Source of the DNA: a virus | Taxonomy: Duplodnaviria; Heunggongvirae; Uroviricota; Caudoviricetes | Strand: one strand, 5' to 3' | DNA length: 64,000 nt | IMG/VR virus record: IMGVR_UViG_3300010885_072628 | Shown here: positions 965 to 58,956 of the stretch, one piece after another | Layout of the letters: each line of letters opens with the position of its first letter | How positions within the stretch are numbered: the first letter of the stretch is position 1 | Notes under the pieces: model-generated | What the model was told of the DNA's origin: nothing | Databases searched by the model: none | What the model saw: only the letters and a program-made list of their open reading frames with translations | Program-made: the position numbers and the translations under genes

Positions 965-1007
965 GTCAAATTTAAATTTTGCTCCTAAAAAAATTGTACC
1001 CTATAAT
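965..1007 (+). promoter_or_regulatory. copy 1 of the conserved AAAAAAATTGTACCCTATAAT motif, with an upstream palindromic AAATTTAAATTT element. Candidate phage-specific promoter.
   Basis: Core 987-1007. One of 6 near-identical copies in the window, all on the + strand and all intergenic or upstream. Confidence 0.5.
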
Positions 1008-1148
1008 GGGGTAAGGGCAGACCGGAGACCAGCTTTACAAGTTGTTTTTTCGTGCTACCCTTACATTAGGGCCGAAAGTTCCTCTTATCCTCACATTGTG
1101 TGGTACGGATTCGATTTTAGGAGCTTTCGACTCACGGAGATTTTTAAA

Positions 1149-2078
1149 ATGGCTCGGACTAAAAAGGTTGATAACAAGGTTGATGCCACGGTAAAGCAAG
1201 CCGCACAGGTGATGCGGACTCTTCCTCGTTCTTCGGATGTGATCGCAAGTCTTACCAAGACTCTTTCCGCACACGGGCTGGAGGTCAAGCCGCAGCCAAA
1301 GGGCAAACCAGAGCGTTGGGAGATGATCCTAGACGCTAGGGCGAAAGTGGCGGCTACACAGTGGATTGAGGCTAAAACGGTCTGTGAGGCGGTTGAGGCC
1401 CGTCTGGATAATGCTAAAGCACTGATCTCTGCTTATGCAGAACACCAGATGATCAGCAAGATTTTTGATCATAAGTGTCGTCCATCTAACCCGCAGATTG
1501 TTTTGCGAGATAGCAAGGGTGAACCAGATCATCAGTTTCTTTTTCAGTTTCAGGATAAGTTTAAGGTTGAGTTTAAGAAGATTCCTGATGGTGTAGATCA
1601 TATCGAATACTTTTGCCAACTCTTTGAGTCAGTGGGACTCACAGCAGAAAATGCAAAGTCGATTGTTGAGAACGAGTTTGATTTTAGTCCTGTGACTGGA
1701 ATTCGCAGTCTTACAGAACTACTTGATGGTCGATATGGCGAAGGTCGTGAGTGGATGGAATCTTCTCCAGAAGAAAAGAGTGCAGGAGCAAAACTTGCCG
1801 CTCTTCTTATGTGGGATGGTTCTAGTGATGTTGAACCACTTACTCCACAAGAAAAGTCCATTGTTGTGAAGCAAGATCCGGGCGTGGTAGTTAAGTCTGG
1901 GTTTTATGATCGTGTGGCAACTTATTGCGAGACTCTTGAACAGTTGGAAGCAATCTTTAGTATTGTGAAGCCTGTTTGTTATCCTTCTCATAGCAAGTTT
2001 GCTATTAACGATACCGAGACATCGAAAACTCAGCGAAAGATCGCTGCTGTGACTGATATTTTGGTCGATAAAGAGTAA
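1149..2078 (+). CDS. hypothetical protein encoded on a GC-rich (about 50% GC) island. Probably horizontally acquired.
   Basis: ATG at 1149 preceded by GGAG (the track ORF begins at GTG 1098). Composition clearly deviates from the 33% GC background. A strong terminator follows. Confidence 0.5.
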   Translation: MARTKKVDNKVDATVKQAAQVMRTLPRSSDVIASLTKTLSAHGLEVKPQPKGKPERWEMILDARAKVAATQWIEAKTVCEAVEARLDNAKALISAYAEHQMISKIFDHKCRPSNPQIVLRDSKGEPDHQFLFQFQDKFKVEFKKIPDGVDHIEYFCQLFESVGLTAENAKSIVENEFDFSPVTGIRSLTELLDGRYGEGREWMESSPEEKSAGAKLAALLMWDGSSDVEPLTPQEKSIVVKQDPGVVVKSGFYDRVATYCETLEQLEAIFSIVKPVCYPSHSKFAINDTETSKTQRKIAAVTDILVDKE

Positions 2079-2088
2079 TTTTACGGTT

Positions 2089-2130
2089 GCACATAGGGTG
2101 GAGGTAAAAACTCCACCCTATGTGCTTTTT
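2089..2130 (+). terminator. Rho-independent terminator
   Basis: Perfect 15-bp stem gcacatagggtggag / ctccaccctatgtgc, loop gtaaaaa, then TTTTT. Confidence 0.8.
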
Positions 2131-2150
2131 ATTACATAATTGGAGAAAAA

Positions 2151-2609
2151 ATGAAATATTTGCTTGCGATTATTGTTGCCTTTTCGATGAGTTTTTCTTT
2201 CGCAGACGAAACAAGCGACAAGATTTACGAGGCTATGCAGAGAAATTTTGACGCTTTTAACAAAGAAGACATAGAAGCCGCCATGGATTCTTGTTCTATA
2301 GAAATGCCCCAAAGAGAGCTGTTCAGGTCAGAATCCTTGAAGTCTTTTTCTCAAAATGACGTTCACTACAGTCTTCTTGCTTGTGATGTATTAGAAGTTA
2401 ATTTTCCTTATGCTCTAGTAAAAATTGTTCAAGATACTATTGTACAAAATAGAGATAGCAGCACCACTAAGTTTAGAAATTCAACTGCTATTGTTCCAAA
2501 AGACGAGTGCGTAGAGTATCTACAGACTCTTAAGTTTGAGGATGGAGTTTGGAAGCTTCACGTAATAGTTAGTGCTATGAAGCCTGTAGCAAGGGCAGAA
2601 GCCAACTGA
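2151..2609 (+). CDS. secreted protein (signal peptide). NTF2/SnoaL-like fold suspected. Paralog of 3896..4459.
   Basis: N-terminal MKYLLAIIVAFSMSFSFA signal. Shares an E..DAFN...D/Cys pattern with 3896..4459. Confidence 0.4.
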   Translation: MKYLLAIIVAFSMSFSFADETSDKIYEAMQRNFDAFNKEDIEAAMDSCSIEMPQRELFRSESLKSFSQNDVHYSLLACDVLEVNFPYALVKIVQDTIVQNRDSSTTKFRNSTAIVPKDECVEYLQTLKFEDGVWKLHVIVSAMKPVARAEAN

Positions 2610-2613
2610 GCAT

Positions 2614-3384
2614 ATGTCGATACCAGTAATCGGAACCGCCGTAGTAAACAACACCAAATGGGTCAAAAGACTGCTAGAAAGCATTGATTACCCAGTTGAT
2701 GAGTTTGTGATTTTCAACAATAATGGTAAAGGAGAACTTGAGAAAGATCTAGAATCTATATCAAGTCAATCTTTTCCTTTTGTGAAAAAGATCAAAGTTT
2801 GCCATCTCCCAGCAAATATAGGTTGTGCTGGGGTGTGGAACATGATCATAAAATGCTACATGCTAAGTCCTTATTGGTTGATCGTTAATGATGATGTTGC
2901 TTTTACACCGAACTTTTTAGAAGCAATGGTCAAAAGTGCTAATAAGTCAAATATAGGAATGGTTCACGGTACGTCTGGGGAATTTGGGTTAGGATATTAC
3001 GATCTTTTTTTGATTAAAGATTGGGTTGTTCAAAAAATAGGTTTGTTTGATGAGAATTTTTATCCTGCTTATGTAGAAGATTGCGATTACATCATGAGGA
3101 TTATTCTCGATCCTTTTGATAAAGAGTTTCTGAATCTTCCTTATTTACATGGAGATTCGCTTGAATACAAGGAAGGTGGTTCTCAAACTATAAAACTTGA
3201 TGCAATGCTAAAAGAGAAAGTCGATCATGCTAGATATATGAATGAAAATTCATATATGAATGAAAAATGGGGAGAATCTTGGCGTTGGTGCGATCCTAGT
3301 AAGACCCCGTTTAATAAAGATTTCCCAATAACCTATACAACTTACGACTTGGATTTCAATAGAAAAAAACACTTAGGTTTTTGA
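2614..3384 (+). CDS. glycosyltransferase, beta-1,4-galactosyltransferase-like (Glyco_transf_7C-like motif). Paralog of 20459..21331.
   Basis: LFDENFYPAYVEDCDYIMRI matches the fDE.F.gwG.ED.D...R motif of GT7/GT2-fold galactosyltransferases. Confidence 0.5.
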   Translation: MSIPVIGTAVVNNTKWVKRLLESIDYPVDEFVIFNNNGKGELEKDLESISSQSFPFVKKIKVCHLPANIGCAGVWNMIIKCYMLSPYWLIVNDDVAFTPNFLEAMVKSANKSNIGMVHGTSGEFGLGYYDLFLIKDWVVQKIGLFDENFYPAYVEDCDYIMRIILDPFDKEFLNLPYLHGDSLEYKEGGSQTIKLDAMLKEKVDHARYMNENSYMNEKWGESWRWCDPSKTPFNKDFPITYTTYDLDFNRKKHLGF

Positions 3385-7599: not shown

Positions 7600-8292
7600 T
7601 CAGTAGGACTTACAGTATATTACTTGTGAAAAGCTTTTTGCTTTTACTGTCTCGTCTATTAGTTCTGCAAGTAAACCAGCAGTATATTTTGCTGCACCAT
7701 TAGTTTTTCTTAGTTCATGGATTATTTCAATCTGCATAGATTGTACATTTCTTTCGTAATACCATTTTCTAAAAAGCTGATTCATATTATTTTTATTCCA
7801 TCCCGACATATATCCTCCAGATGCTCCTTCATATGCGTTTATTCCATTTCTTTCTAACAAGTATATGAAAAGATTTTTTTTCCAATCTTCGCAGCTAAAG
7901 CTATTCGGGTGTCCTGCTCCATATCCTACTACAATATCTAATTTTGGATCATTAGATATTTTTCTATGTTTATTTGACATTCCGTGAATGTAAAAAATAT
8001 TCACCATAGAATGCTTTGCTAGTATTTTGCTTTTATATCTAACAATTGGCTCTAAAAACTCTTCTCTAACAACATCTTCTAAACAGTGAATAACATTGTT
8101 GCAATCCGCTTTATCTTGCATAAAGTCTACTTTATTGCATCTTTCCCATCCTAAATTAATCACTGCAAAGGCGTTTAATTTATTGGCTATTTCTTCGGAT
8201 ATCAAAGCTGTTCTTTCGTCATCTCCTTCGTATCCATGTGGAGCCACAATGATTATAGGAGATTGACCTGATATATTTCTTACTCTTTGCAT
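7600..8292 (-). CDS. putative zinc amidohydrolase of the poly-gamma-glutamate hydrolase / N-formylglutamate amidohydrolase fold
   Basis: IIIVAPHGYEGDDERTALISEEIA resembles the PghP/FGase H.GG.E metal-binding N-terminus. Size of about 230 aa is consistent. Confidence 0.3.
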   Translation of the reverse strand: MQRVRNISGQSPIIIVAPHGYEGDDERTALISEEIANKLNAFAVINLGWERCNKVDFMQDKADCNNVIHCLEDVVREEFLEPIVRYKSKILAKHSMVNIFYIHGMSNKHRKISNDPKLDIVVGYGAGHPNSFSCEDWKKNLFIYLLERNGINAYEGASGGYMSGWNKNNMNQLFRKWYYERNVQSMQIEIIHELRKTNGAAKYTAGLLAELIDETVKAKSFSQVIYCKSY

Positions 8293-8482
8293 AATATATC
8301 ATAGTGTTATTAAAACTAAAGCTTACTGCCATATATAAGAACCTATGGACAAAATTCGCAATCCTGTCATACGAATAGACTTATCAAAAAAAAGCCCCGC
8401 AGAGATTGCCAACTGTCTTTCTTTACTTAGAACCTTGGCTTTTAAGAAAAAAATCAAAGTCAAAGTTAAAAATTAGGCCAAA

Positions 8483-8542
8483 TTCAAATTTAGCTTACAG
8501 GGACGACCCCCTATCGGTTTGAAAAAAATTGTACCCTATAAT
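8483..8542 (+). promoter_or_regulatory. copy 2 of the AAAAAAATTGTACCCTATAAT motif, with an upstream AAATTCAAATTT element
   Basis: Core 8522-8542. A G/C-rich leader with a small hairpin (ccgcc..ggcgg) follows. Confidence 0.5.
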
Positions 8543-8603
8543 GGGTGGACCGCCTTGACAGGGCGGAAATATAGGCTAACATAGAGGCAGAAAGGCTTTT
8601 TTT

Positions 8604-9569
8604 ATGGATATCAAACCACGGGTTTTGACCCCTGAAGAAAAAATTCTTGTAAAAGAAAGATTGCTTCAAGTCTCCCAAATTATCGAAAAGTGGACAAAGG
8701 AATATCCACAATTTTCAACAAAAGAGATAAAGTCGTTTTTTCTCAACAAGACTTTCCCTTTTCCAAAGAACTCAGACCTGCTTATCGACCAAAAAGTGTT
8801 TGAAAACTTCAGAGAAGAAAATCATCCGCATTTTGAAACAACTTTAGAAATGGTTGTTCTAGAGTCTTTTGCTCCAATCTGTTATAATATGTCTAAAAGT
8901 TGGTCCCGCCGAATATCCTCAGAATCTGATATCTCTCCTAGTGCCATTTTTCACGATGTGTTGCAAGATGCATTCATGTCTGTGTTGAATTCCATGTATT
9001 ATTACACAGATTCGAATTATAGTTTTTCGACTATAATTATTGAATCTTTAAAAAGACATATGGATAGAATGTACAGATACAATTATTGCAAAACCTCCCC
9101 TCGTTCTTTGGAAGATCACAAAACAGTTATTCAATACAACATATCGAAGATCAAAGAACCACATGTGACCTTTGATCAGATAGTTAAATCTATGGGTATT
9201 AGCGAAGATCAAACATCGAGACTTTGCGATGTTATTCGTTTTGTTTGTAGAGAGTCTAATGCTGATAGTAATAATTCTTTGAATCTGGGCAACATCATTG
9301 ATACTTCTTCTTCCCAACAAGAAGAGGTTGATTTCGTAGATTGTGTTTCTGTATTCAAGAAGGGACTAAGTTCTGCAGAACTTTCTTTGTTGGAATTGAC
9401 CTCGGAAGAAATTGAAATTTTTAAGATAGGAATTGATTGTGGATTCAGACGAGGATGGCAGTCTGATTGTGCAAAGGACAAATCTCTAAGCAGACAAAGA
9501 ATAGGACAGATCTATATTTCTGCTGTTGCCAAACTCAAGCCCTTGCTTATGAAGACGTTTTATGCCTAA
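8604..9569 (+). CDS. divergent sigma-70-like factor (candidate second phage sigma)
   Basis: YSFSTIIIESLKRHMDR resembles sigma r2.3/2.4 (FSTYA.WWIR). C-terminal LSRQRIGQIYISAVAKLK resembles a region-4 HTH (TRERIRQIE.KAL.KLR). Confidence 0.35.
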   Translation: MDIKPRVLTPEEKILVKERLLQVSQIIEKWTKEYPQFSTKEIKSFFLNKTFPFPKNSDLLIDQKVFENFREENHPHFETTLEMVVLESFAPICYNMSKSWSRRISSESDISPSAIFHDVLQDAFMSVLNSMYYYTDSNYSFSTIIIESLKRHMDRMYRYNYCKTSPRSLEDHKTVIQYNISKIKEPHVTFDQIVKSMGISEDQTSRLCDVIRFVCRESNADSNNSLNLGNIIDTSSSQQEEVDFVDCVSVFKKGLSSAELSLLELTSEEIEIFKIGIDCGFRRGWQSDCAKDKSLSRQRIGQIYISAVAKLKPLLMKTFYA

Positions 9570-11561: not shown

Positions 11562-12626
11562 ATGCCTGATATAAAGATTAGCGAATTAACGCCCGGAGCA
11601 GCTTATGCAAACAGCTATGTTCCTGCTAGTGACGAAGCAGGAACAACAACTAGTAGGGTCAGTCTATTATCTATCGCACAATTAGCTCCATATTTAAAAG
11701 GAATAGGCGATTATAGTATAGTCGGAGGAAATTCTAATACTTCTAGTGGTAATTATTCTTCTATTTTAGGTGGTCAAAATAATAATGACGGCGGGTATAG
11801 CAATGTTTTTATTCTTGGTTCGAATATTACAGCAACATTGGCAAATTACACCTATATTAATAATTTAAAAATTGCATCTGATGGCGTCATTAGATTCGGA
11901 GACGGATCAGTACAAAATACAGCAGGCGGTGGCGGGCCATTCTCTTTTGGATCAGGAATATCCAGTTCAAATCCTAGTTCGAATAATTATGCATCTGGTA
12001 ACTACAGTGCTGTATTGGGTGGTTATGATAATTATGCAAAAAATGATTACTCTGTTGCTAGCGGCAAGCAATCTGTAGCTCGTCTTTATGGAGAACAATC
12101 CCACGCAGCAGGTAGCTTTTCTGTTGTTGGAGATGCACAAAAAAGTTCTTTTGTTTTAAGAGCTGTCACTACTGATGCGGCAACAACACAGCTATCGTTA
12201 AGTGGTGGTTCTGCGTATATCACAATGCCAGAAAACTCTGTCTGGACATTTACCGCTCGTATTAGTGCAATTAGAACTAGTGGTGGCATTCAAGATGCAG
12301 GGGCAGGATTTATTATACAGGGAGCTATAAGAAGCGATAATAGTTCAACGTACATCATAGGAAGCACAATAACAGAAAATTGGTCTGATCCTGAATTGGC
12401 TTCAACAACAGCGATTGTGTCTAATTTTAATAATTTATTTTACGTCACAGTCAAAGGATTAGTTGCCTATGAAATTAGATGGGTTTGCAATTTAGATGTA
12501 TGTCAAGTCAGCTACTTAAACCCAACCCCTACTCCAACCCCTACTCCAACCCCTACTCCAACCCCTACTCCAACCCCTACTCCAACTCCAACCCCAACCC
12601 CTACTCCAACCCCTACTCCAACTTAG
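11562..12626 (+). CDS. tail fibre / collar fibre protein with a C-terminal (TPTP)n linker
   Basis: N-terminal MPDIKISELTP...LLSIAQLAPY typical of phage fibre N-termini. Gly/Ser/Asn-rich beta-helix-like repeats. 50-aa PTPT tract at the C-terminus. Confidence 0.5.
   Translation: MPDIKISELTPGAAYANSYVPASDEAGTTTSRVSLLSIAQLAPYLKGIGDYSIVGGNSNTSSGNYSSILGGQNNNDGGYSNVFILGSNITATLANYTYINNLKIASDGVIRFGDGSVQNTAGGGGPFSFGSGISSSNPSSNNYASGNYSAVLGGYDNYAKNDYSVASGKQSVARLYGEQSHAAGSFSVVGDAQKSSFVLRAVTTDAATTQLSLSGGSAYITMPENSVWTFTARISAIRTSGGIQDAGAGFIIQGAIRSDNSSTYIIGSTITENWSDPELASTTAIVSNFNNLFYVTVKGLVAYEIRWVCNLDVCQVSYLNPTPTPTPTPTPTPTPTPTPTPTPTPTPTPTPTPT
12521..12623 (+). repeat. tandem 12-bp repeat (ccaacccctact)n encoding (PT)n
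   Basis: About 8.5 units read directly. Confidence 0.8.
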
Positions 12627-13258
12627 CTGTAGAGATTGTATTTGAAATGAAATACTCCTATATGGGATATCTCTTTGCTTAGGTTATTGTCACAGACTAT
12701 TTCGTAGTTTTTTGCTCTAGCATTTTGACAAAAATAAATATCCTCTCCTATTTCTAACTTTTTATTTTTATCATAATCTATAATGTAATAAGGGGAGCCA
12801 ACATCTTCGTACACCTTTCTACTAACAAGCAAACAACCATGCCCCATAATATCAACTAATTCTGTTGGCGGACTATCATCATTTAGCTCTACACAAACCC
12901 CCTCATCTATAACGCTTTTTTCTTTACTAGCAGCACGATGAGATGTGAAAATTGGGTTTGGGAATCTTCTTTTTCTATAATTACACCCTATAATAGGAAC
13001 TTTATGTTCTAAAAGTCTAACACAAGCATCAGCGGGAAACTTCATATCAGAATCAACCCACCAAATATATTCATAATCAGTACTTAAAAAGTATTCTACT
13101 AATTCTCGTCTATTTTTTGCTAGATAAGAGCTTATATTAAAAGCTACATTCACAGTATGCTCAGCAGCCACTAAATTAGCGGTAGCCATACTCAAACTTT
13201 GACAAAATTCAGCAGCAACTTGTTCTGTTGATGGGACGCATATTAGGATTTTACTCAT
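12623..13258 (-). CDS. putative glycosyltransferase
   Basis: Nucleotide-sugar transferase-like IWWVDSDMKF DxD-type motif. Confidence 0.35.
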   Translation of the reverse strand: MSKILICVPSTEQVAAEFCQSLSMATANLVAAEHTVNVAFNISSYLAKNRRELVEYFLSTDYEYIWWVDSDMKFPADACVRLLEHKVPIIGCNYRKRRFPNPIFTSHRAASKEKSVIDEGVCVELNDDSPPTELVDIMGHGCLLVSRKVYEDVGSPYYIIDYDKNKKLEIGEDIYFCQNARAKNYEIVCDNNLSKEISHIGVFHFKYNLYS

Positions 13259-13978: not shown

Positions 13979-14905
13979 TCAAGTGAAGTATAAAACTACT
14001 CCTCCTGGTTTTCCATCGGTTGCCCCTGCGTAAGTTCCTTCCCCCCCACTTCCAGTAGTTGTCTCATCCATAGTACTGCCACTCAAAAATACAGCAGCAT
14101 TTCTGCCTTGAAAATCAACTGTTGCAGCAGGAGTGCCTGTGCAAGAGGCTCCTGTCCAATTAGATTTGTAAAAAGTGCGGTTACAATTGCCATTAAGACC
14201 GATAGATAGCAGGGGAGCGTTTGTGGGATTTTTCCATGATATCCCTGCTCCACCAGTAATTGTAATTCCAGAATATGTAACGCTACTAATCGTTCCATCA
14301 GTGCTATGAGGTGGGGGAAATCGTACTCCCGCAATCCCTTTAGATCCAACAGTATAAGATACAGTGTTTCCGCCGGTAACGGTATACTCTCTTACCGCTT
14401 CGCCTCCATTATTTCCGTTGCCGTATTGACCGCATGACTCGTTTTCTGTACCACCTGCTTCTCCACCTCCACCTCCACCTATGACCCATGCCTTCATCTT
14501 TGTGGCTCCCGTGGGCACAGTATATGTGCTTGTGACTGGAGTTTTGAACACAACTGCAAATGGCGTGTAAGGAGTAGCTGTTGGAGTAGCTGTTGGAGTA
14601 GCTGTTGGAGTAGCTGTTGGTGTAGCTGTTGGTACAGTAGTTGGTGTAGCTGTTGGTACAGGAGTTGGTGTAGCTGTTGGTACAGGAGTTGGTGTAGCTG
14701 TTGGTACAGGAGTTGGTGTAGCTGTTGGAGTAGCTGTTGGAGTAGCTGTTGGAGTAGCTGTTGGAGTAGCTGTTGGAGTAGCTGTTGGAGTAGCTGTTGG
14801 AGTAGCTGTTGGATCGTATAAAGATGAATTTAATATCAAAAAAGAGTCTCCATTATGTACTACTTTAAAATCATTTGATATTTTTGATATTTTAAAATTA
14901 GGCAT
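13979..14905 (-). CDS. structural (fibre-like) protein with an (ATPT/PVPT)n linker and a Gly-rich C-terminal domain
   Basis: About 22 TATP/TPVP repeats, then [26 protein letters not shown]. Confidence 0.45.
14571..14814 (-). repeat. tandem 12-bp repeat (gtagctgttgga)n, antisense of the (TATP)n coding sequence
   Basis: About 20 units with gtacaggagttggt variants. Confidence 0.8.
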
Positions 14906-19683: not shown

Positions 19684-20523
19684 TCAATTAAGAACTTTTG
19701 TTTTTTGTAAAGGCACAGGCTTTGCTTTTTTAATTATTTCATCAAAGCTTTCTTCTACTTGTTTTAATGTCCTGTCGTATTGTGTGCCATATCCATTTGC
19801 ACGATTAAACTCTGTTTGTTTTTCTTGTCTCATTTTGTGACGGGCTAAACAAAACTTCTTTGATAGATTTCTATAGTGTAATAGTTTTAATAGATTGTTT
19901 TTAGAAAACAAAGCTGGCCCAGTCGGTTCGCACCAGTGACACCCCGCAGTAAAATTTATTTCTACTTCGCTAGATTTAAAGATACATGGCTTAGATACTG
20001 CTTTGCTTGGAATTCCAAGATTGTTTTGCATGTATATCTGCCCCAGTTTTATATTAGGCAGCTTAGTAGAAACCATTTCATAACCATTAGGAACGAGAAT
20101 TGTTGCGTCTTGTCTTTCTGCATTTGTTATTAATAGCTTTAGATTTGGATGATAAACAAATTCATCCATATCTACAACTATAGACCAGTCATCACCTTGG
20201 CTTTTCCAACAATTGTTTTTCAAGTTTGTGAATATATCATCTCTTATCCCATCAGAATTATACTCTCTTAATATAGCTCCGCTTTTTTCGATTATTTCTC
20301 GAGAATTGTCTGTTGAATTGTTATCGTAAATTACAATTCTATTTGTTATTGTGCTATAATGCTTAATGAAAAATGGTAATAAAATTTCTTCATTATAACA
20401 AAAAGAATAAACAGATATATTCAAAATAGTTTCCTTTCTTAATTCAATTGAGTAGCTAATGATTAATTTACTTGGAAAGATGACAAGAACATTAGATAAA
20501 AAGTCTGATTTGTTAATTGGCAT
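19684..20523 (-). CDS. glycosyltransferase (GT2-like/GT92-like)
   Basis: ISVYSFCYNEEILLPFFIKHY...IVIYDNNSTDNS. The 5' end overlaps the divergent 20459 gene, so the true start is uncertain. Confidence 0.5.
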   Translation of the reverse strand: MPINKSDFLSNVLVIFPSKLIISYSIELRKETILNISVYSFCYNEEILLPFFIKHYSTITNRIVIYDNNSTDNSREIIEKSGAILREYNSDGIRDDIFTNLKNNCWKSQGDDWSIVVDMDEFVYHPNLKLLITNAERQDATILVPNGYEMVSTKLPNIKLGQIYMQNNLGIPSKAVSKPCIFKSSEVEINFTAGCHWCEPTGPALFSKNNLLKLLHYRNLSKKFCLARHKMRQEKQTEFNRANGYGTQYDRTLKQVEESFDEIIKKAKPVPLQKTKVLN

Positions 20524-26453: not shown

Positions 26454-26930
26454 ATGGACTATTTTTTAGACACTGAGTTTAATAGCTTTGGTGGTGAACT
26501 TATATCTTTAGCGTTGGTAAGAGAAGATGATAAAAGCATCTATCTAATTTATCCCGAACTTGAGTCTTATGACCCTTGGGTAGCGGACAATATAATTCCT
26601 ATCTTGCGTAATGTTCCATCAACAATTACTTATCTGGAAACAAAGCAACAAGCTGCATATTTGCTGCAAGAATTTCTTCTAGGCGATGACCGCCCAAAAA
26701 TCATCACAGATTGGCCAGACGACATACGATATTTCTGTGCTGAGTTGATAACGAAACCTGGACAAATGATTAATGTTCCAAATATTAATTTCTCTATGCT
26801 AAGAGTTAATGCTTATCCGACATTAGTTCAAGGAGCGATCCAGCACAATGCTTGGTGGGACGCAGTGGCACTTAAAGAGCTTGTGAACCAGCACCGTCAA
26901 GCTGAAGGTGGGCTGCGAAATCGGGGCTAA
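26454..26930 (+). CDS. DEDD-type 3'-5' exonuclease-like protein
   Basis: N-terminal FLDTEF (Exo I-like) and C-terminal H.AWWDAVALKEL (Exo III-like H....DA). Confidence 0.4.
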   Translation: MDYFLDTEFNSFGGELISLALVREDDKSIYLIYPELESYDPWVADNIIPILRNVPSTITYLETKQQAAYLLQEFLLGDDRPKIITDWPDDIRYFCAELITKPGQMINVPNINFSMLRVNAYPTLVQGAIQHNAWWDAVALKELVNQHRQAEGGLRNRG

Positions 26931-34091: not shown

Positions 34092-34102
34092 GGAATAACA
34101 AA

Positions 34103-45624: not shown

Positions 45625-46013
45625 CAACGCTCGTAAATTTCACAAAAAAGTATATTACACAAAAAATTAGTTCAATTAGTTTAGATCATTTTGATGGACA
45701 AAGTTTCGAGAGTATTATTTCTCAACTAAATGAAAAATCTAAGAAGGCAGAGTCTGAATTCCCTTCGATGAAGCCACCGACAATGAAACATATTTATTTA
45801 GAGAAAATATATGATAGGCATAATGAAACTTATTATTTCGATGTAATGATTGAAAGACTAGAAAACGATAAAGAGTATGATAATAGAATTAAAGAAGAAA
45901 AAAAAGAACAAGAAAGAAAAGCAAAAATGGCGGCTAGACAAGAAACAAAAAAAGAAAAGTTTGAAGAAAAAGAGTACCGAAGACTAAAAAAGAAATACGA
46001 GAAAAAAGCATGA
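45621..46013 (+). CDS. cassette-family protein (type A N-domain) with a conserved K/E-rich C-terminal tail ...RLKKKYEKKA
   Basis: ERLENDKEYDNRIKEEKK...EYRRLKKKYEKKA. 3' junction ctaaaaaagaaatacgagaaaaaagcATGA. Confidence 0.4.
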   Translation: MTTLVNFTKKYITQKISSISLDHFDGQSFESIISQLNEKSKKAESEFPSMKPPTMKHIYLEKIYDRHNETYYFDVMIERLENDKEYDNRIKEEKKEQERKAKMAARQETKKEKFEEKEYRRLKKKYEKKA

Positions 46014-46425
46014 TATGCAACAAATGCAATAAGGGAGAAATTCAAACATCAACAGCAGGTGATATTGATTTTTTTGGTTGCAACAAATGCGATAATGGCT
46101 GGATCGTGGAAAATGGAAAGAAATATATTAGACAAGGGCTTGATGCTTTTTCTTTTAATGAGTCATCTGATTTAGGCACATTTACTTTAGATGATGCAAT
46201 TAATTATCTGGAAAAAATAAAATCTCTTCACCCAGAAGCGAATCAATTTTATTTAAGAGTAGAAAAAAATCATTATGACGATCTGAATTGTTTTGTTGTA
46301 GAGATGGAAAGGTTAGAAACAGACAAAGAGTACAGTAAGAGAATCAAATTGGAAGAAAAAAACAAGAAGCTATTGAAAGAAAAGAACTCGCAAGATTGAA
46401 AAAGAAATACGAGAAAAAATCATGA
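46010..46425 (+). CDS. cassette-family protein (zinc-ribbon N-domain, type A tail). Needs a -1 frameshift at A_AAA_AAC (46357-46363) to reach the conserved tail. Zero-frame product ends at 46399.
   Basis: Frame 0: ...ETDKEYSKRIKLEEKNKKLLKEKNSQD*. Frame -1 continues ...KKQEAIERKELARLKKKYEKKS*, ending in the same ATGA junction (46422-46425) as its paralogs. Confidence 0.4.
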
Positions 46426-46652
46426 CAAATAAAGAGTTTGATTTATATACCTCCCATATTTGGAATACACATTTTTTTTATGAAGAATTTGATTATCCTT
46501 GCTATTCGGGATTAAATGATAAGTTCCAAGGTTCTTCTGAAGCATGTGATGCTATGCAAAGAATCTGGGGCGTTACATATAAAACCAAAGAACAGTTTCA
46601 GAATGCTTACAAAACTCAACTTAAAATATTAGGAGAAGATATAAATTCATGA
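46422..46652 (+). CDS. hypothetical protein
   Basis: 76-aa ORF. Confidence 0.3.
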   Translation: MTNKEFDLYTSHIWNTHFFYEEFDYPCYSGLNDKFQGSSEACDAMQRIWGVTYKTKEQFQNAYKTQLKILGEDINS

Positions 46653-46846
46653 AAGACTTATTCAAAACAAAATATCGCTTAGTTGAAAGAAAATATCCTC
46701 TTGGATATGTTGAATATTTTATTCAATACAAATTTTGCTGTATCTTGTGGCTTGATATTAGCTGCTATGGTAACTTATCCGCAGCACAAGGTTCATTCAA
46801 AAATTTAACAAATCCAACCGTTGAAACAATATTGGAAACAACATGA
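46649..46846 (+). CDS. hypothetical small protein
   Basis: 65-aa ORF. Confidence 0.25.
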   Translation: MKDLFKTKYRLVERKYPLGYVEYFIQYKFCCILWLDISCYGNLSAAQGSFKNLTNPTVETILETT

Positions 46847-47376
46847 AACAAATCAAGTATAACAATTATGAATTTAGAGCTAAAGTTAGTGGGAAATATA
46901 TAGTTCCCGGTGGAAAAGGAGGGCACTACTATAGGCATTATTACAAAGAAAAAGATATCCCGAACATCATCAAAGAAATAGAAGCTGAATATCCGAGATA
47001 TAAAGGAAAAATAAAACCTTTTCGTCTTCTTATTGAAGAAGTTCAACTTCCTAGCAATATAATTAAAAAATCACTAAAAGCTATTAAAGCAATAGAGAGG
47101 GAAATAGCTCATTACGGAATACGCAAAGATATTGCGGAAGCTATGAGAGAATTGGGGAGCCAAGGATTTGAGTTTTGTGGTCATGGCTACGGATTAAGTG
47201 GTGGCTACGAAGACTTTAGTTTGTTTAACAAGCATGTGCATGTAAACTTTTGTGATAAACACAAAAAGTGCGAGGTAACGATAAGCGATGATAATGAATT
47301 AGTATTTAATGGCACTATTGTTAAGGCAATGAATTACTTGTCCAAGAACAAATTAACAAGAAAACAAAAGGTTTAA
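46843..47376 (+). CDS. hypothetical protein
   Basis: 177-aa ORF. Confidence 0.35.
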   Translation: MKQIKYNNYEFRAKVSGKYIVPGGKGGHYYRHYYKEKDIPNIIKEIEAEYPRYKGKIKPFRLLIEEVQLPSNIIKKSLKAIKAIEREIAHYGIRKDIAEAMRELGSQGFEFCGHGYGLSGGYEDFSLFNKHVHVNFCDKHKKCEVTISDDNELVFNGTIVKAMNYLSKNKLTRKQKV

Positions 47377-47377
47377 A

Positions 47378-47860
47378 ATGATAATCAAGCCCCCACAAAA
47401 CATAGCCCTCAGAGACAGCGAATATTCAATTTTTTTGGCTGGTTCAATCGAAATGGGTTCAGCAATTGATTGGCAAAAAGATCTTGGAGAACATCTATCC
47501 GGCAAAGGCTATACAGTGTACAATCCAAGACGAGATGATTGGGATAGCACTTGGGAGCAAAAATTTGAAAGCCCTCAATTTTACCAACAAGTGAATTGGG
47601 AATTAAACGCTCTGGATCAAGCGAATTACATCGTGATGTATTTTGATCCTAAAACTAAAAGCCCAATAAGTCTTTTGGAATTAGGACTTTATGCAAATAC
47701 TAACAAATTATATGTGATTTGTCCCGAAGGCTTTTGGCGAAAAGGAAATGTGGATATTGTTTGCAACAAATATGATATCCCACTTTTCCCCGACATTGAA
47801 GAATTCAAGAACAAATGGGAAAACTTTGCCATTAAAAAGAGAATGTGGGGAACAAGATGA
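47378..47860 (+). CDS. nucleoside 2-deoxyribosyltransferase-like protein
   Basis: SIFLAGSIEMG...W (N-terminal Rossmann-like motif). SPISLLELGLYANTNKLYVICPEG with the conserved Glu, as in NDT/DNPH1 enzymes. Confidence 0.5.
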   Translation: MIIKPPQNIALRDSEYSIFLAGSIEMGSAIDWQKDLGEHLSGKGYTVYNPRRDDWDSTWEQKFESPQFYQQVNWELNALDQANYIVMYFDPKTKSPISLLELGLYANTNKLYVICPEGFWRKGNVDIVCNKYDIPLFPDIEEFKNKWENFAIKKRMWGTR

Positions 47861-48039
47861 AAGTTAAAAGCTTTAAAGTTTTAAGCCTCAACGAAACATT
47901 GTCTAGAGAAGAATTAGACAAACTGTGGAAGGAAGAATTGTGGGTTGCAAACAGACCAAGAACATGGTATGAATGGTTCTGCTGGACTTTTGACGGTAAA
48001 TATAATATTTTTAATTGCAGCGGAGAAAATCATGGCTAA
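47845..48039 (+). CDS. hypothetical small protein
   Basis: 64-aa ORF. Confidence 0.25.
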   Translation: MGNKMKVKSFKVLSLNETLSREELDKLWKEELWVANRPRTWYEWFCWTFDGKYNIFNCSGENHG

Positions 48040-48391
48040 AAAAGCAAAAGCAAAAGAGACGAAACTTCCCAAAAATAGACAATACATAATTTTGAAACAT
48101 GATGGCTACGGTGTTTTAGAACCTTTTACTTCTCTAGGCATTTCTGGAGCTTGTATTTATGATGGAAAGGACATCACATCTATAGAGGACGCCATTTGTG
48201 GGGCGTATGAGGAAATCGGCGGAGAAATTGAAGAACTTGAAGAATGGGATGGATCCGACATCGTAATTTTATCTGTGGAAAACGAACTCGAATATATCAA
48301 GTCTACTATTAAAAAATATCATTCAGATGTCGAGACAAAAGAAAAAAGAGAGTTGGCACGACTAAAAAAGAAATATGAAGGTAAATCATGA
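48032..48391 (+). CDS. cassette-family protein (type B N-domain, MAKKAKAKETKLPK...) with the ELARLKKKYEGKS tail
   Basis: ATG at 48032 after GGAG. Tandem paralog of 48388..48753. Confidence 0.4.
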   Translation: MAKKAKAKETKLPKNRQYIILKHDGYGVLEPFTSLGISGACIYDGKDITSIEDAICGAYEEIGGEIEELEEWDGSDIVILSVENELEYIKSTIKKYHSDVETKEKRELARLKKKYEGKS

Positions 48392-48753
48392 ATAAAAAAG
48401 CAAAAGCAAAAGAGACGAAACTTCCTAAAGATGGAAGATACATAGTCCTAAGAGATGACGGGGGTGGTTTGAGCCTTTTCGATTATTCGTCAGGGGCAAT
48501 TTACATCTATGATGGAACGGAAGAATTAGAGGACGCAATTTGTGGTGCTTACGAGGAAATCTATGGGGAAATGAGTGAAGAATTTGATGATGACGATATA
48601 TACAGCGAGAATTACCTAGATCAAATCTGCATTTTTTCTTTGGAAGATAAACCCGAATACATCAAGTCTACTCTTAAAAAATATCATTCAGATATCGAGA
48701 CAAAAGAAAAAACAGAGTTGGCACGACTAAAAAAGAAATATGAGAAAAATTAA
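48388..48753 (+). CDS. cassette-family protein (type B). Tandem duplicate of 48032..48391.
   Basis: MNKKAKAKETKLPKDGRY...ICGAYEEIYGE...YIKSTLKKYHSDIETKEKTELARLKKKYEKN. Confidence 0.4.
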   Translation: MNKKAKAKETKLPKDGRYIVLRDDGGGLSLFDYSSGAIYIYDGTEELEDAICGAYEEIYGEMSEEFDDDDIYSENYLDQICIFSLEDKPEYIKSTLKKYHSDIETKEKTELARLKKKYEKN

Positions 48754-49123
48754 AATGAATGAAGATGCCGATTATCGCTCAGTCGCTTTCGCTTGGCTCG
48801 GCGGCGGACTTGGAATTTTATTCTGGTTTACCTGCGTTTTCATCTTGCCAACGCTCATTGTCTTGGGCATCATCTTCACTCTTGGTCTTGGCGACAAGCA
48901 AAAAAATAAACCAGAAGCTATTTACACATACAGAGACAGCATAACTTTCATGGATAAAGATACTGACGAAAGAGTCATTCAGTTAAAGAATGTAGAGTTT
49001 AGAGTTTTAGGCAAAGGCTCTTTCATGTATCAAGTCCAAGATGGAGAAAAAGAAGTTTTGGTTTGTGATGAAATTCCGCTCAATACATATCCAATGATTC
49101 GAAAAATAGAAATAAATGAGTAG
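48740..49123 (+). CDS. membrane protein
   Basis: Two TM helices (GGGLGILFWFTCVFILPTLIVLGIIFTLGL). Confidence 0.35.
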   Translation: MRKIKMNEDADYRSVAFAWLGGGLGILFWFTCVFILPTLIVLGIIFTLGLGDKQKNKPEAIYTYRDSITFMDKDTDERVIQLKNVEFRVLGKGSFMYQVQDGEKEVLVCDEIPLNTYPMIRKIEINE

Positions 49124-49185
49124 ATTCAGAGCTTCATGTTCCAAGAGTAGAAGATATTGTTTTAAATGCTGCTAGGATTATTAGT

Positions 49186-49578
49186 ATGACAAAGAAATAT
49201 ATCACAGAGAATATTAGAACTATTGATTTAGATGATATGATTCACACCGACATAGATTCCTTTATTACTATGTTTGCTGAAATCAAGAAAGAGTATCCCA
49301 ATGATAAGATAGCTGTTTCTTTCAACAAACATGAAAAGCTGGATTATAATGATTACGATACTTGCTATGTTTGTGAATGTACCCACACCCTTGACTTTAC
49401 TCTTAATAGGATAGAAACCGATAAAGAATATGACAATAGAATAAATAGATATAAGAACCAAAAAAAGGCAAGACAAAAAGCTAAAGAAGAAAAAATAGAG
49501 AAAAAGAGACTAGAAAAAGAAGCTAATGATAAAAAAGAATATCTTAGATTAAAAAAAATATATGAGGGAAAACCATGA
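49186..49578 (+). CDS. cassette-family protein (type A) with the EYLRLKKIYEGKP tail
   Basis: NRIETDKEYDNRINRYKNQKK... Confidence 0.4.
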   Translation: MTKKYITENIRTIDLDDMIHTDIDSFITMFAEIKKEYPNDKIAVSFNKHEKLDYNDYDTCYVCECTHTLDFTLNRIETDKEYDNRINRYKNQKKARQKAKEEKIEKKRLEKEANDKKEYLRLKKIYEGKP

Positions 49579-49772
49579 GTACATTTGAAGTTTACTACGT
49601 TATCCGAAAAGAAGACAAAAAACAGGTCGATAAGATTGTGGCTGGTCCTTATTACGAATTACTTGAAGCTTTTGATGCCATAAAAAAATTAGAGAATGAT
49701 CACAGAGAATATTCTTTTGAAGTTATGACCCATGTGCTCAAACTCATAGATGGCGTCATAGATGGCGATTGA
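49575..49772 (+). CDS. hypothetical small protein
   Basis: 65-aa ORF. Confidence 0.25.
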   Translation: MSTFEVYYVIRKEDKKQVDKIVAGPYYELLEAFDAIKKLENDHREYSFEVMTHVLKLIDGVIDGD

Positions 49773-51564: not shown

Positions 51565-51654
51565 ATTGAAATATAATATCTACTAGGAGCTTGTCGGGAC
51601 GCAGTGGCACTCAAAGAGCTTGTGAACCGTCAAGCTGAAGTGGGCTGCGAAATC

Positions 51655-51701
51655 GGGGCTAATTTAAAATTTGCCCGCTAAAAAAATTGTACCCTAATAA
51701 T
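51655..51701 (+). promoter_or_regulatory. copy 5 of the AAAAAAATTGTACCCTAATAAT motif, with an upstream AATTTAAAATTT. Drives the tRNA-Gln.
   Basis: Core 51680-51701. Lies in the duplicated segment 51596-51701 (the copy at 26857-26969). Confidence 0.5.
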
Positions 51702-51802: not shown

Positions 51803-51875
51803 TGTCCGGTAGCTTAATTGGTTGAGCAAGGGATTTTGGTTCCCTAGGTTGCAAGTTCGAGTCTTGCCCGGACAT
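51803..51875 (+). tRNA. tRNA-Gln (anticodon UUG)
   Basis: Manual fold: acceptor TGTCCGG/CCGGACA (7 bp), U8A9, D-arm GCT/AGC, anticodon stem AGGGA/TCCCT with loop TTTTGGT (UUG), variable loop AGGTT, T-arm GCAAG-TTCGAGT-CTTGC, discriminator T. No encoded CCA. Confidence 0.8.
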
Positions 51876-51879
51876 CTAC

Positions 51880-56774: not shown

Positions 56775-57559
56775 CTAGAATAATTGATTGTTTTATTTTC
56801 TACAACGAATTAGACTTGCTAAAATATAGACTTGATTTGTTAAATGATGTTGTAGATTATTTTGTAATTGTTGAATCTACGCATACTTTTGTTGGAAAAG
56901 AAAAAAGGCTATTTTTCAACGAAAACAAACATCTATTTGATAGTGAAAAAATAATCCATATTATTGTGGATGATTTTCCATATAAACATCCTAACAATGT
57001 GGATGTTTGGCAAAATGAATATTTTCAAAGGAATGCTATTCAAAGAGGAATAGATCTAGTAAAAGATATATCCGATGAAGATGTAATAATACTATCAGAT
57101 GCAGATGAAATTCCTGATCCACACACTTTGATCAAAATCAAAAAAGGCGATATATTAGTTGATCTTCATACGCTTCAAATGGATTTGTACTATTATAATT
57201 TAAATACAATATTTCAAAGTAAATGGACTTTATGTAAAATTGTATCGTATAAAAAATACAAGGAATTAAATATCAGTTGCAACGATATTAGAAATAAAAA
57301 GTGTGATGAAGAAATCTTAAATGGTGGATGGCATTTATCTTATTTTGGCGACAAGCACTTTATTCAAAATAAGATTCAAAATTTCTCACATCAGGAACTC
57401 AATAACTCAGAGTATACGGAGTTAGATAAAATTGAAGAAAGAATGAATAATTCTAAAGATTTATATGATAGAAATTACTTAGATATGAGTTATATAAAAA
57501 TAGAAGATAACAAGTATTTGCCTAAAGATTATCAAAAGCTAGTTGGATTTTATATATGA
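56771..57559 (+). CDS. glycosyltransferase family 17-like (GnT-III-like)
   Basis: IIDCFIFYNELDLLKYRLDLLNDVVDYFVIVESTHTFVGKEKRLFF matches the GT17 F.NELDLLE.RL..L...VD.FVIVES..TF.G..K.L signature. Confidence 0.6.
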   Translation: MTRIIDCFIFYNELDLLKYRLDLLNDVVDYFVIVESTHTFVGKEKRLFFNENKHLFDSEKIIHIIVDDFPYKHPNNVDVWQNEYFQRNAIQRGIDLVKDISDEDVIILSDADEIPDPHTLIKIKKGDILVDLHTLQMDLYYYNLNTIFQSKWTLCKIVSYKKYKELNISCNDIRNKKCDEEILNGGWHLSYFGDKHFIQNKIQNFSHQELNNSEYTELDKIEERMNNSKDLYDRNYLDMSYIKIEDNKYLPKDYQKLVGFYI

Positions 57560-57789
57560 ACATTTGTGCAACTACTGGCAAGACCATATATTCTGACGAG
57601 AAGCAAGCTGCTAAAGGTCTAGACAGAATGGTTGAACGAGTTCCAGATTATGATGGCGAGCCTTATTATTGTTTGTATTGTGCCAACTATCATTTCGGAA
57701 GAAGAAAAGATAGAGTCAAAAAAAAAAAGAAAAAGAACTTAGATGTTTGGGTTCTTAGAAAAACAAATTTCTCCTTCTTCATCTACTGA
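57556..57789 (+). CDS. hypothetical small protein
   Basis: 77-aa ORF. Contains a homopolymer run (A10GA5). Confidence 0.25.
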   Translation: MNICATTGKTIYSDEKQAAKGLDRMVERVPDYDGEPYYCLYCANYHFGRRKDRVKKKKKKNLDVWVLRKTNFSFFIY

Positions 57790-58044
57790 AATTAAAACTT
57801 TGTTTTCTAGAAAGTTTTTCAATAGTATTGTTCCAACTCTTGCACATGTAGCCCATTGAACAACTTTCATTGCCTCTGATACTGCATCGCCGTGATTTTT
57901 GTTGTTAATAATGAAGTTTTGTAAAACCTGCTTAACTTCTTCCTCAGAAAGAGCAATATATTTGTTTTCTTCTTCGCACCAATATAGATCATCTGCTGCG
58001 ATTATGTTGTTCAGTGTTGCTAGATATTTTTCGTAATTTTCCAT
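57739..58044 (-). CDS. hypothetical protein
   Basis: 101-aa ORF, convergent with the long operon. Confidence 0.35.
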   Translation of the reverse strand: MENYEKYLATLNNIIAADDLYWCEEENKYIALSEEEVKQVLQNFIINNKNHGDAVSEAMKVVQWATCARVGTILLKNFLENKVLISVDEEGEICFSKNPNI

Positions 58045-58237
58045 TGTTTTCTCCTATAACTATTCTAGTTATATCTGGAGAAAATACAATTGGAAAAAAT
58101 AAAAATATTATTATTATTGTCGCTTTTGTTTCTTTGTTTTGTTTTTGCTTATAGCGAGTCTTTATTTCATATGATTTTGTCGATATGTATAATGGATTTT
58201 TTTATTTTTTGTTTAGCTAGATTTTTTGAAGAATACG

Positions 58238-58822
58238 TTAAATCCAAAGACTGAGTGGGCACCATATTTTATTGCTTATTCCTATCTTCCTTAATCCTAG
58301 ATTCACCCAATTATTACATGTGTTAATACAATTGTATTTTAAGTTTGATTTGAAATATGTGCCATTTTGGTAATCGGTTTTCTTTTTTTCTATTGGTTGC
58401 AGGTCTGAGATAGAGGAATCTACATACTTTTTAAGTATATTTAATTGGTTTTCATTTATTTTATATTTTTTAATTTTCTTTTTTGGCGTTTCATTTATGT
58501 GTTCTATTCTTACAACTGTTTGGTTGAGACCGAAGAATGCTTTGATGAAATCTATAGCTTTTAATTCGTTCCATGATTGTATTTCCAAGAATATTCTCTT
58601 ATCTCCCCAGCCAAACATTGTGTATTGCATGTCTGTTGAGATGTTTAAATGTTTTGATTCAATCATAAAATCAGAATGGATTGCATCTTTGATTACAAAT
58701 AGATCTATATTTCCATTTGTTGATTTTAATGTAAATGGATATCTGAGAAAAAAAGATATTAGGCACAAAACTCCGTACAATACAAACAGAGGGCTTAAAA
58801 TGAGTAGAAGTATTTTATCCAT
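58238..58822 (-). CDS. membrane protein (N-terminal TM)
   Basis: MDKILLLILSPLFVLYGVLCLISFFL. Preferred over the overlapping + strand ORF 58497..58838. Confidence 0.4.
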   Translation of the reverse strand: MDKILLLILSPLFVLYGVLCLISFFLRYPFTLKSTNGNIDLFVIKDAIHSDFMIESKHLNISTDMQYTMFGWGDKRIFLEIQSWNELKAIDFIKAFFGLNQTVVRIEHINETPKKKIKKYKINENQLNILKKYVDSSISDLQPIEKKKTDYQNGTYFKSNLKYNCINTCNNWVNLGLRKIGISNKIWCPLSLWI

Positions 58823-58910
58823 TCTGTTATTTAGATAGGCAATTTCAAAATTTGATTTTTATGCCCTATCAGGGGTTTGCCTTGTCGTCTGCAAATAAGC
58901 GGCGGCGGCT

Positions 58911-58956
58911 AATTTCAAAATTTGATTTTGCTCGAAAAAAATTGTACCCTATAAGC
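58911..58956 (+). promoter_or_regulatory. copy 6 of the motif (AAAAAAATTGTACCCTATAAGC), with an upstream AATTTCAAAATTTGATTTTG. A second copy of that upstream element lies at 58838-58858.
   Basis: Core 58935-58956. Heads the second GRWPEAE-family cluster. Confidence 0.45.

Follow-up and report, generated by a model that had tools for sequence, protein, structure and literature searches.

Phages are known to carry promoter consensus sequences of their own, a principle which the element reported here leaves unchanged, and several described systems come close to it. In the late promoters of phage T4 (gp55, gp33 and the sliding clamp) a single near-invariant block occupies the -10 region, a -35 element is missing, and the host core RNA polymerase is used together with a phage protein of the sigma family. 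PeSL elements of T4-like phages are short conserved repeats before small open reading frames (ORFs) in variable regions, with evidence of recombination (PMC2839356, PMC4122927), and the early promoters of phiKZ and AR9, read by the virion RNA polymerase, are highly conserved, lineage-specific motifs of about 10 nt near -10, upstream of early operons (PMC7598289). We analyzed a 64,000-nt stretch of DNA (the window) from an uncultured tailed phage, IMG/VR record IMGVR_UViG_3300010885_072628, and found a 12-mer, AATTGTACCCTA, that resembles these systems. It forms a family of repeats with uniform orientation that are coupled to gene starts, conserved at two orthologous positions, devoid of a -35 element and in one case duplicated. 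Judged from its sequence context, the element is very likely a -35-independent, lineage-specific promoter of some class. The 12-mer sequence appears to be undescribed so far (a search of the literature with TTGTACCCTA yielded nothing but unrelated primers), while the kind of element is well known.

In the window the 17-mer AAAAAAATTGTACCCTA occurs exactly six times, always on the + strand. When the 21-mer was searched with up to three mismatches, six matches were obtained versus 0.03 expected, and none of 100 shuffles got to six, which confirms the six + strand repeats reported in a first-pass annotation of the window. The units downstream were also as described there, with start codons at 1149, 8604, 26984, 28691 and 59002 and tRNA-Gln at 51803-51876. 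No added credible copy was found in the window and 9.2 kb upstream of it, searching TTGTACCCTA with one mismatch or the 12-mer with two. The copies, each an exact 17-mer, are as follows:

987-1003, + strand: motif copy 1 (A7 plus TTGTACCCTA; 12-mer core at 992-1003), before the gene with start codon ATG 1149; orthologous copies exist.
8522-8538, + strand: motif copy 2, in the divergent intergenic region between the minus-strand gene 7600-8292 and ATG 8604.
26948-26964, + strand: motif copy 3, 19 nt upstream of ATG 26984 (RuvB/clamp-loader-like AAA+ gene).
28593-28609, + strand: motif copy 4, in the 3' end of ORF 28099-28689, 81 nt upstream of ATG 28691 (first GRWPEAE-repeat gene).
51680-51696, + strand: motif copy 5, 107 nt upstream of tRNA-Gln (51803-51876).
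58935-58951, + strand: motif copy 6, in the divergent intergenic region between the minus-strand gene 58238-58822 and ATG 59002.

A scan of viral contigs with AAAAATTGTACCCTA gave about 45 single, evidently chance matches, and eight and six matches in two near-identical uncultivated viral genomes (UViGs) of 381 kb and 146 kb. Because the 381-kb relative reads AAATGAATTGTACCCTA (L018:3563-3579) at the position orthologous to copy 28593, we take the 12-mer AATTGTACCCTA to be the invariant core. Extending the motif search to relatives gave at least 80 distinct 12-mer sites upstream of genes in five or six related jumbo-phage genomes (80 sites and five genomes are lower bounds), and 79 of the 80 are co-oriented within their contig. 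The window phage has six sites, the 381-kb UViG (IMGVR_UViG_3300032334_002567) 44, and its 146-kb twin also 44, 38 of them in common with the former. Ga0304729_1000127, from the same sample as the window, has 18 within 8 kb; two were found in Ga0304729_1042340, three in Ga0114964 and one in a GROS21 contig.

The sites are coupled to gene starts. For ORFs of 40 aa or more, the core is followed by the next start codon at a median of 35 nt, and a start codon lies within 60 nt downstream of 52 of 70 sites versus 31% of random positions. The plain form, TAAAAT-AATTGTACCCTA, stands singly before dozens of small genes in the relatives, and a small ORF follows each of the 18 copies in 8 kb of L081 and of the 12 copies in 4 kb of L024. 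The recurrence of the 12-mer co-oriented with genes, its coupling to start codons and the missing -35 support the original proposal of a virus-specific promoter family that is not of the standard -35/-10 host type.

Two window copies, 987 and 28593, are conserved at orthologous positions in the 381-kb relative, and the orthologue of copy 987 stands upstream of the orthologous gene in L025/L060/L196 and in L061. These copies precede orthologous genes although the proteins of the motif-bearing relatives are only about 57-67% identical to those of the window and their GC content is 0.40-0.46 versus 0.36. As the 12-mer is fixed across this divergence in composition and protein sequence, it appears to be under functional constraint. 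The other copies in the window and in the 381-kb relative precede genes without a detected orthologue at the matching site in the other genome.

Many copies in the relatives have a common downstream leader, GTTGTTCGATCC..CCCCAACGGAG. In L003, L024 and L081, many small genes behind the 12-mer have an extended leader, gaaaGTTGTTCGATCC..CCCCAACGGAGa..ATG, so that a whole cassette of about 55 nt, comprising promoter, leader and ribosome-binding site, is repeated and not the promoter alone. At four places in the 381-kb relative (L024:1493, 2899 and 4012, and L003:6221) an inverted variant, TAGGGTACAAAT(AAA), lies about 20 nt upstream of a forward 12-mer, in three of the four cases directly after a terminator-like hairpin with a T-run. 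The resulting near-palindromic pair, of which none was seen in the window, may bind a dimer or serve as a divergent promoter in the antisense direction.

One window copy goes back to a duplication. The segment 26857-26969, which holds the 3' end of the RNase H-like gene, the A/T dyad described below and the motif, recurs with one substitution, one 6-nt indel and one 1-nt indel before tRNA-Gln:

51593-51701, + strand: non-coding duplicate of 26857-26969, found by repeat-family analysis (D18) and alignment.

The right boundary of the duplication, which spans about 110 nt, falls 5 nt after CCCTA, and by this alignment copy 51680 arose from it. In this respect the earlier suggestion that the motif moves by recombination stands. 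The case on which it had been based does not: copy 28593, lying in ORF 28099-28689, had been read as a module that had moved, and in the 381-kb relative the ORF ends before the motif, which occupies the corresponding intergenic position (L018:3568). On this comparison copy 28593 is ancestral, and the window ORF simply reads through it.

The duplication ending at the motif, the motif flanking each small ORF of the arrays in relatives, and the lack of detected orthologues behind the copies beyond the two orthologous positions could indicate that the element is chiefly a recombination or mobility sequence, i.e., a cassette boundary spread by homologous recombination (PeSL-type shuffling) that owes its uniformity to copying. 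However, the same 12-mer is fixed despite the differences in GC content and a protein identity of about 60%, and the orthologous copies have been retained. Mobility is also compatible with promoter function, since PeSLs are themselves promoters (PMC2839356, PMC4122927). We consider a passive recombination boundary highly improbable. A PeSL consists of a terminator stem-loop and a sigma70-type early promoter, whereas here no -35 is present and upstream hairpins are not enriched: hairpins of at least 6 bp precede 18 of 69 sites (26%) versus 23% of random windows, and terminator-like hairpins two of 69 (3%) versus 1.6% in the control. We also discarded a terminator-like match on the minus strand (1013-997) as the basis of the motif, since only copies 987 and 8522 have the hairpin.

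The anatomy of the element was derived from a position frequency matrix of 69 sites. The matrix is flat from -45 to -8, in agreement with the earlier remark that a correctly spaced -35 is lacking, and the hexamers at this spacing in the window (AAATTT, CCCTAT, AAATTT, TTTGGC, AAATTT and TTGATT) include no canonical -35. Just before the 12-mer, T occupies -6 in 42 sites and A occupies -5 in 62; A follows at -4 to -2, and either A or T at -1. Then come the invariant 12-mer, N A A R n n, a pyrimidine and a purine: of the 69 sites, 54 have a pyrimidine (T 40, C 14) as the seventh base after CCCTA and 64 a purine (G 40, A 24) as the eighth. This pyrimidine-purine step is the best candidate for the transcription start. 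Within the 12-mer, the key positions of a -10 hexamer are occupied by T, A and T in TACCCT, whose distance to the best pyrimidine-purine start signal is 8 nt instead of 6.

The first-pass annotation had included a perfect TATAAT in the motif. The four bases after CCCTA are TAAT, TAAT, ATAA, CATC, ATAA and TAAG in the six copies in order, so that a perfect TATAAT is present in only two of them, 987 and 8522; in relatives only the TA is fixed and the would-be T-7 is mostly G or A. 'TA' plus four bases was likewise rejected as the -10 hexamer, its last position being G or A, not T, in most copies. No conserved TAnnnT was found downstream of the 12-mer in the 69 sites. In some copies Shine-Dalgarno sequences begin as near as 8-9 nt after CCCTA, leaving no room for a further promoter downstream. 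The element does not match an extended -10 either: in TTGTACCCT the TG directly abuts TA, and the shifted register ACCCTA lacks A-11. The G/C-richer leader ascribed to every copy was recovered for four of the six (GC 0.45-0.65 over 40 nt), while the other two (0.35 and 0.38) are near the window mean of 0.355.

Could unaided host sigma-A read TACCCT, or the adjoining upstream TAAAAT, as a -10, with A-tract and dyad acting as UP elements of an early promoter? TACCCT fits TAnnnT in all 80 copies, and a canonical promoter of the window (P2, see below) also has TACCCT as its -10. Positions -6 to -1 often read TAAAAT, for which the T-A at core positions 5/6 would give the canonical start distance of 7 nt, and the motif stands before small-gene arrays in relatives, a typical early-gene layout needing the host polymerase. 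Twelve invariant bases including CCC are nevertheless unlike host -10 elements; of the 69 sites only 29 have T at the would-be T-7 of TAAAAT, all six window copies having A there; neither a -35 nor TGn spacing is present; and related lineages use a canonical TTTACA/TAnnnT promoter for the same gene, which shows what the host-type consensus looks like. Recognition by host sigma-A alone is thus unlikely in our view, although it comes first among the rival explanations, followed in order by a phage polymerase, an RNA-level signal and the passive recombination boundary discussed above.

Compared with T4 late promoters, which share the single block without -35, the sequences are unrelated (TATAAATA in T4), the block is 8 nt in T4 versus 12 here, and the 12-nt block seems to lie about 2 nt further from the start. 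T4 late promoters serve structural genes, whereas the genes here are replication, transcription and small early-type genes. A T4 middle promoter (MotA/AsiA), with a box near -30 and a -10 element 11-13 bp downstream, was not matched either, given that no downstream TAnnnT was found and that the Shine-Dalgarno sequences are too near.

Canonical promoter-like sites follow two of the copies, 987 (TTTACA-16-TACCCT) and 8522 (TTGACA-16-TAACAT):

1043-1070, + strand: canonical promoter P2, TTTACA-N16-TGcTACCCT, downstream of copy 1, conserved across lineages.
8555-8582, + strand: TTGACA-N16-TAACAT, a sigma70-like site by consensus match only, which follows copy 2 and precedes ATG 8604; possibly a tandem promoter.

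The form cTTTACA-N16/17-(TGn)TAnnnT was found upstream of the gene-1149 family in all lineages examined (window, L025, L061, L063, L065, L189 and L191-L196), including those without the 12-mer and down to 36% protein identity. In the more distant lineages the gene-1149 orthologue has only a canonical TTTACA-17-TAnnnT promoter. From this we conclude, on sequence comparison, that two promoter classes coexist in the motif-bearing subclade, sometimes in tandem. Two promoter classes are the usual basis of temporal control in phages. The canonical promoter lies directly downstream of the sigma gene in L061/L062, L065/L066 and L191-L195, and a small ORF intervenes in the window and in the 381-kb relative; it may be the cognate promoter of the RpoD-like sigma described below. 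The gene-1149 family itself comprises 75 protein clusters on jumbo-phage contigs and has no Pfam domain. Its 5' leader of about 80-100 nt (window 1071-1148; L025:894-976; also L063, L065, L189 and L193) contains a conserved small hairpin, CCTCACATTGTGTGGTACGG in the window and CCGGCCTCGCAATGAGCGGTAAGGTCCGG in L063, for which RNAalifold gave eight pairs, five with compensatory changes, from seven sequences. The leader hairpin may be a translational operator or a protein-binding site.

All six window copies are A-rich at -6 to -1 ([T/G/C]AAAAA) and have a longer A-tract, and this subclass identity is kept at the orthologous copy upstream of the gene-1149 family. The first-pass annotation had listed an A/T palindrome at four copies; a related A/T dyad does stand upstream, at five of the six:

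968-979, + strand: A/T dyad AAATTTAAATTT, centre 18 nt upstream of the copy 1 core start.
8480-8491, + strand: A/T dyad AAATTCAAATTT, centre 41 nt upstream of the copy 2 core start.
26929-26940, + strand: A/T dyad AATTTAAAATTT, centre 18 nt upstream of the copy 3 core start, overlapping the stop codon of the RNase H-like ORF 26454-26930.
58911-58922, + strand: proximal A/T dyad AATTTCAAAATT, centre 23 nt upstream of the copy 6 core start.
58841-58852, + strand: second, distal dyad copy, 93 nt upstream of the copy 6 core (58940).

Alone, AAATTTAAATTT has six matches in the window versus 3.8 expected, which is not above chance. Across the family, a dyad within 130 nt upstream was found at nine of 69 sites versus about 1.2 expected, an enrichment of about 7-fold, and it is restricted to the A-rich motif variant. 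The distances from the core start fall at 16-23 nt (six sites) or 36-41 nt (three sites), about two helical turns (~20 bp) apart. This phasing suggests a predicted protein-binding site that acts on the polymerase, and the dyad could be an UP-like site for the polymerase alpha subunit or a site for a phage regulator. A/T-rich UP subsites resemble such a dyad, a likeness that would also suit host sigma-A. The lineage L063, which lacks the 12-mer, has two copies of a tandem direct repeat of 48 nt, tatgccaaattcaccaaataggtcgaaccaaatgccaagattgctctc, upstream of the canonical promoter of its gene-1149 orthologue (L063:9741-9850). Comparable repetition is seen in the A/T elements before copies 987 and 58935 and in three TAAATTAGCCAGTT-like repeats of L025.

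The window phage comes from a freshwater metagenome (sample 3300028392), and about 73 kb of its genome and fragments of relatives were covered here. It belongs to a clade of uncultured jumbo phages, because homologues of gene 1149 lie on contigs of up to 462 kb and the closest IMG/VR relative is the 381-kb contig. A megablast search of GenBank phages with the first 20 kb of the window gave no match, and no close cultured relative emerged from tblastn searches with three of its genes, those for the sigma, the AAA+ protein and the UDP-galactopyranose mutase. At 45% identity, the best tblastn match was the unannotated 595-kb uncultured phage LR756511.1, in which the 50 kb around the match held neither the motif nor a repeated 10-mer. 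Related-locus searches with the gene-1149 protein alone and with the 8604 protein gave no match. In lineages without the 12-mer (L063, L065, L187-L198), a k-mer search of about 20 kb per lineage revealed no other repeated motif.

Two proteins of the window had been put forward as possible readers of the motif:

23-694, + strand: RpoD-like sigma gene, 3' part, a candidate reader of phage promoters (Pfam Sigma70_r2 and r4; best PDB matches SigA/RpoD).
8604-9569, + strand: orphan 321-aa protein downstream of copy 2 with a marginal sigma-like signal (PHROG 351, E=1.4e-7).

The RpoD-like sigma gene starts upstream of the window and encodes 287 aa in full (L185:9071-9934). Aligned with SigA, it keeps the -10-pocket segment FSTYATW and a nearly canonical region 4.2, and it has three differences in region 2.3/2.4, W434V, Q437K and T440F in E. 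coli sigma70 numbering. Because its DNA-contact helices are invariant in a wider clade without sign of the motif (see below), this sigma alone is an unlikely reader of the 12-mer and would not be sufficient to explain its restriction to a subclade, so that the role assigned to it by the first-pass annotation is weakened; it more likely reads the clade-wide canonical class instead. The protein at 8604-9569 is only marginally sigma-like. No homologues of this protein were detected beyond one cluster of 99% identity, and its single-sequence AlphaFold2 model (mean predicted local distance difference test, pLDDT, 40) was unusable. PHROG scans of 50 ORFs, a subset (10 of them also versus Pfam), detected no gp55, gp33, MotA, AsiA or RNA polymerase; compared with T4 late transcription, the sigma-family proteins seen here are thus the RpoD-like protein and the marginal orphan instead of gp55 or gp33 homologues.

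The layout of the element also recalls promoters of single-subunit phage polymerases. T7-family promoters, of which T3 AATTAACCCTCACTAAAG is an example, are contiguous over about 18 bp and have an AT-rich 5' part, a C-rich block and a nearby purine. A promoter read by a phage-encoded RNA polymerase (single-subunit and T7-like, or a virion multisubunit enzyme) as a contiguous duplex of about 18 bp, with a start a few bases after CCCTA, would account for the contiguous, near-invariant block and for the succession of AT-rich part, specificity block, AT-rich stretch and purine (58 of 69 sites have R as the fourth base after CCCTA). That each small gene has a motif of its own likewise recalls the early promoters of polymerase-encoding jumbo phages, AT-rich motifs of some 10 nt centred close to -10 that were found bioinformatically (PMC7598289). 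In the T7 family, however, the base after the block is G, whereas here T, G or A occur about equally and the best pyrimidine-purine signal stands 8 nt after the block. The phiKZ/AR9 motifs are AT-rich and belong to multisubunit polymerases without sigma, in contrast to the sigma-family proteins and the invariant CCC found here. No phage polymerase gene, of the T7 family or otherwise, was seen in the 73 kb or in related loci, of which a subset of ORFs was scanned. Moreover, the lineage encodes sigma factors, and in a survey of 224 jumbo phages the sigma-encoding groups were without their own polymerase while the polymerase-encoding group 1 was without sigma (PMC7824862). Transcription of these units by a phage polymerase is quite improbable.

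In general, jumbo phages that encode a sigma factor along with T4-like replication genes have no RNA polymerase of their own and are believed to redirect the host core (PMC7824862), which favours the host core with a phage-specified factor. Two such T4-like genes are present in the window, one RNase H-like (PHROG 2259) and the other a clamp-loader/RuvB-like AAA+ gene, and the arrangement proposed here resembles that of T4 late promoters. Taken as a whole, a lineage-specific promoter family with a phage-specified reader on the host core is the model we hold to be probable. The promoter would need no -35. TACCCT would serve as a -10-like element, presenting T, A and T where the sigma2 domains of sigma70-family proteins read, with TTG directly upstream of TACCCT and an A-rich block before the TTG, and the first transcribed base would be the purine 8 nt downstream of CCCTA. 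The host core RNA polymerase would be redirected by a sigma, a sigma-like protein or a holoenzyme modifier specified by the phage; unaided host sigma-A, and the RpoD-like sigma 23-694 acting alone, are unlikely to fill this role. The window copies, with A7 tract and a dyad about 18 or 40 nt upstream of the core, would form a separately regulated subclass before conserved replication and transcription genes and a tRNA, in which the dyad might act as an UP-like site for the C-terminal domain of the alpha subunit or as a phage-regulator site. A bolder version, improbable at present, is that the reader is a novel initiation factor of sigma-encoding jumbo phages, either a diverged sigma-like protein (e.g., the 8604 orphan) or an unannotated polymerase, which engages a contiguous duplex of about 18 bp, the phased dyad being a phage-regulator operator that times a promoter subclass.

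Several points weigh against this model. That the 12-mer acts as a promoter, where transcription starts and which factor reads it are inferred from sequence, the phages being uncultured. With the predicted start, TACCCT would span -14 to -9 instead of the canonical -12 to -7, a shift of two bases upstream; no spacer base separates TG from TA, as it would in an extended -10; and the 12 invariant bases exceed usual sigma-dependent -10 elements. Gene conversion and the duplication of cassettes may explain part of the uniformity of the 12-mer. About 10 lineages, at 39-57% overall identity of the RpoD-like sigma, share the same DNA-contact helices in this protein (FSTYATWV.KKNFFRD and TKERVRQLKEK); most of these lineages have no motif within 10 kb of the sigma gene, and IMG/VR contigs (59-340 kb) of those lineages contain no 15-mer or 16-mer copy. 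The other candidate, the 8604 protein, has only marginal similarity to sigma factors (Pfam Sigma70_r2 E=0.22; hhalign versus the sigma alignment 0.4% probability). It is also possible that a phage RNA polymerase gene lies outside the ~73 kb seen.

The element might alternatively act in the transcript, as a site at which an endoribonuclease or an RNA-binding protein processes or activates each downstream cistron. Its strict strand specificity, its position between same-strand genes, usually without an upstream terminator, its fixed short distance to the Shine-Dalgarno sequence and the common downstream leader of many relative copies would agree with such a signal. Two window copies, however, lie in divergent intergenic regions without a detectable upstream + strand promoter: no + strand sigma70-like site was found at 8296-8521, upstream of copy 8522, or in 58823-59001, around copy 58935. 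There the minus-strand ORF 58238-58822 is a plausible membrane protein, and an overlapping + strand ORF is unlike a real protein. Furthermore, copy 51680 precedes a tRNA and not a cistron; the pyrimidine-purine step, A-tract and dyad are features of DNA promoters; and neither a complementary segment nor covariation hinting at a structured RNA was detected. An RNA-level signal is very doubtful, and we retain the promoter with a phage-specified reader.

Since the transcription programmes of uncultured giant phages are almost unknown, a 12-mer that marks transcription units in at least five genomes offers a handle for operon annotation and for separating promoter classes (12-mer versus canonical TTTACA/TAnnnT). 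Biochemical tests of a polymerase-redirecting phage factor would be possible with synthetic DNA and expressed proteins alone, and if the reader were found, the 12-mer could serve as an orthogonal promoter.

Besides the RpoD-like sigma, the RNase H-like gene and the AAA+ gene, the window holds one tRNA-Gln and long arrays of small + strand ORFs. Auxiliary metabolic genes lie at 33267-35569, 23414-24499, 2614-3384 and 20459-21331, encoding nicotinamide phosphoribosyltransferase, a ribose-phosphate pyrophosphokinase-like protein (NAD salvage), UDP-galactopyranose mutase and two glycosyltransferases. In a related phage, L065:12173-13249 encodes a protein with an N-terminal methylation motif and SBP_bac_10 (DUF1559); this family is greatly expanded in Planctomycetes, a possible host-range hint for the wider clade. 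Repeats were also found within coding regions of the window. The 1285-aa ORF at 15021-18878 contains many internal repeats of 102 nt (34 aa) and has weak tail-fibre/structural PHROG matches. A tandem array with a 12-nt period and about 20 or more units lies at 14523-14870 in the minus-strand ORF 13979-14905, and a 12-nt-period CCAACCCCTACT (Pro-Thr) array at 12510-12641, at the 3' end of ORF 11562-12626.

At 45900-49600 small paralogous + strand genes (families D7, D12 and D16) have common 3' ends (...AAAAAGAAATACGAGAAAAAA.CATGA) and overlapping stop and start codons, and the cluster looks like local gene duplication in a variable region. Paralogous families with a repeated 'GRWPEAE' peptide motif occur at 28691-30714 and 59559-60891, and in L084, L095, L018 and L032; their proteins have no Pfam or PHROG match. 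The peptide motif is encoded by TATGC...GG.AG(A/G)TGGCCAGAAGCAGA (repeat families D6, D8 and D10), and homologues of these families in related phages also have the 12-mer upstream.

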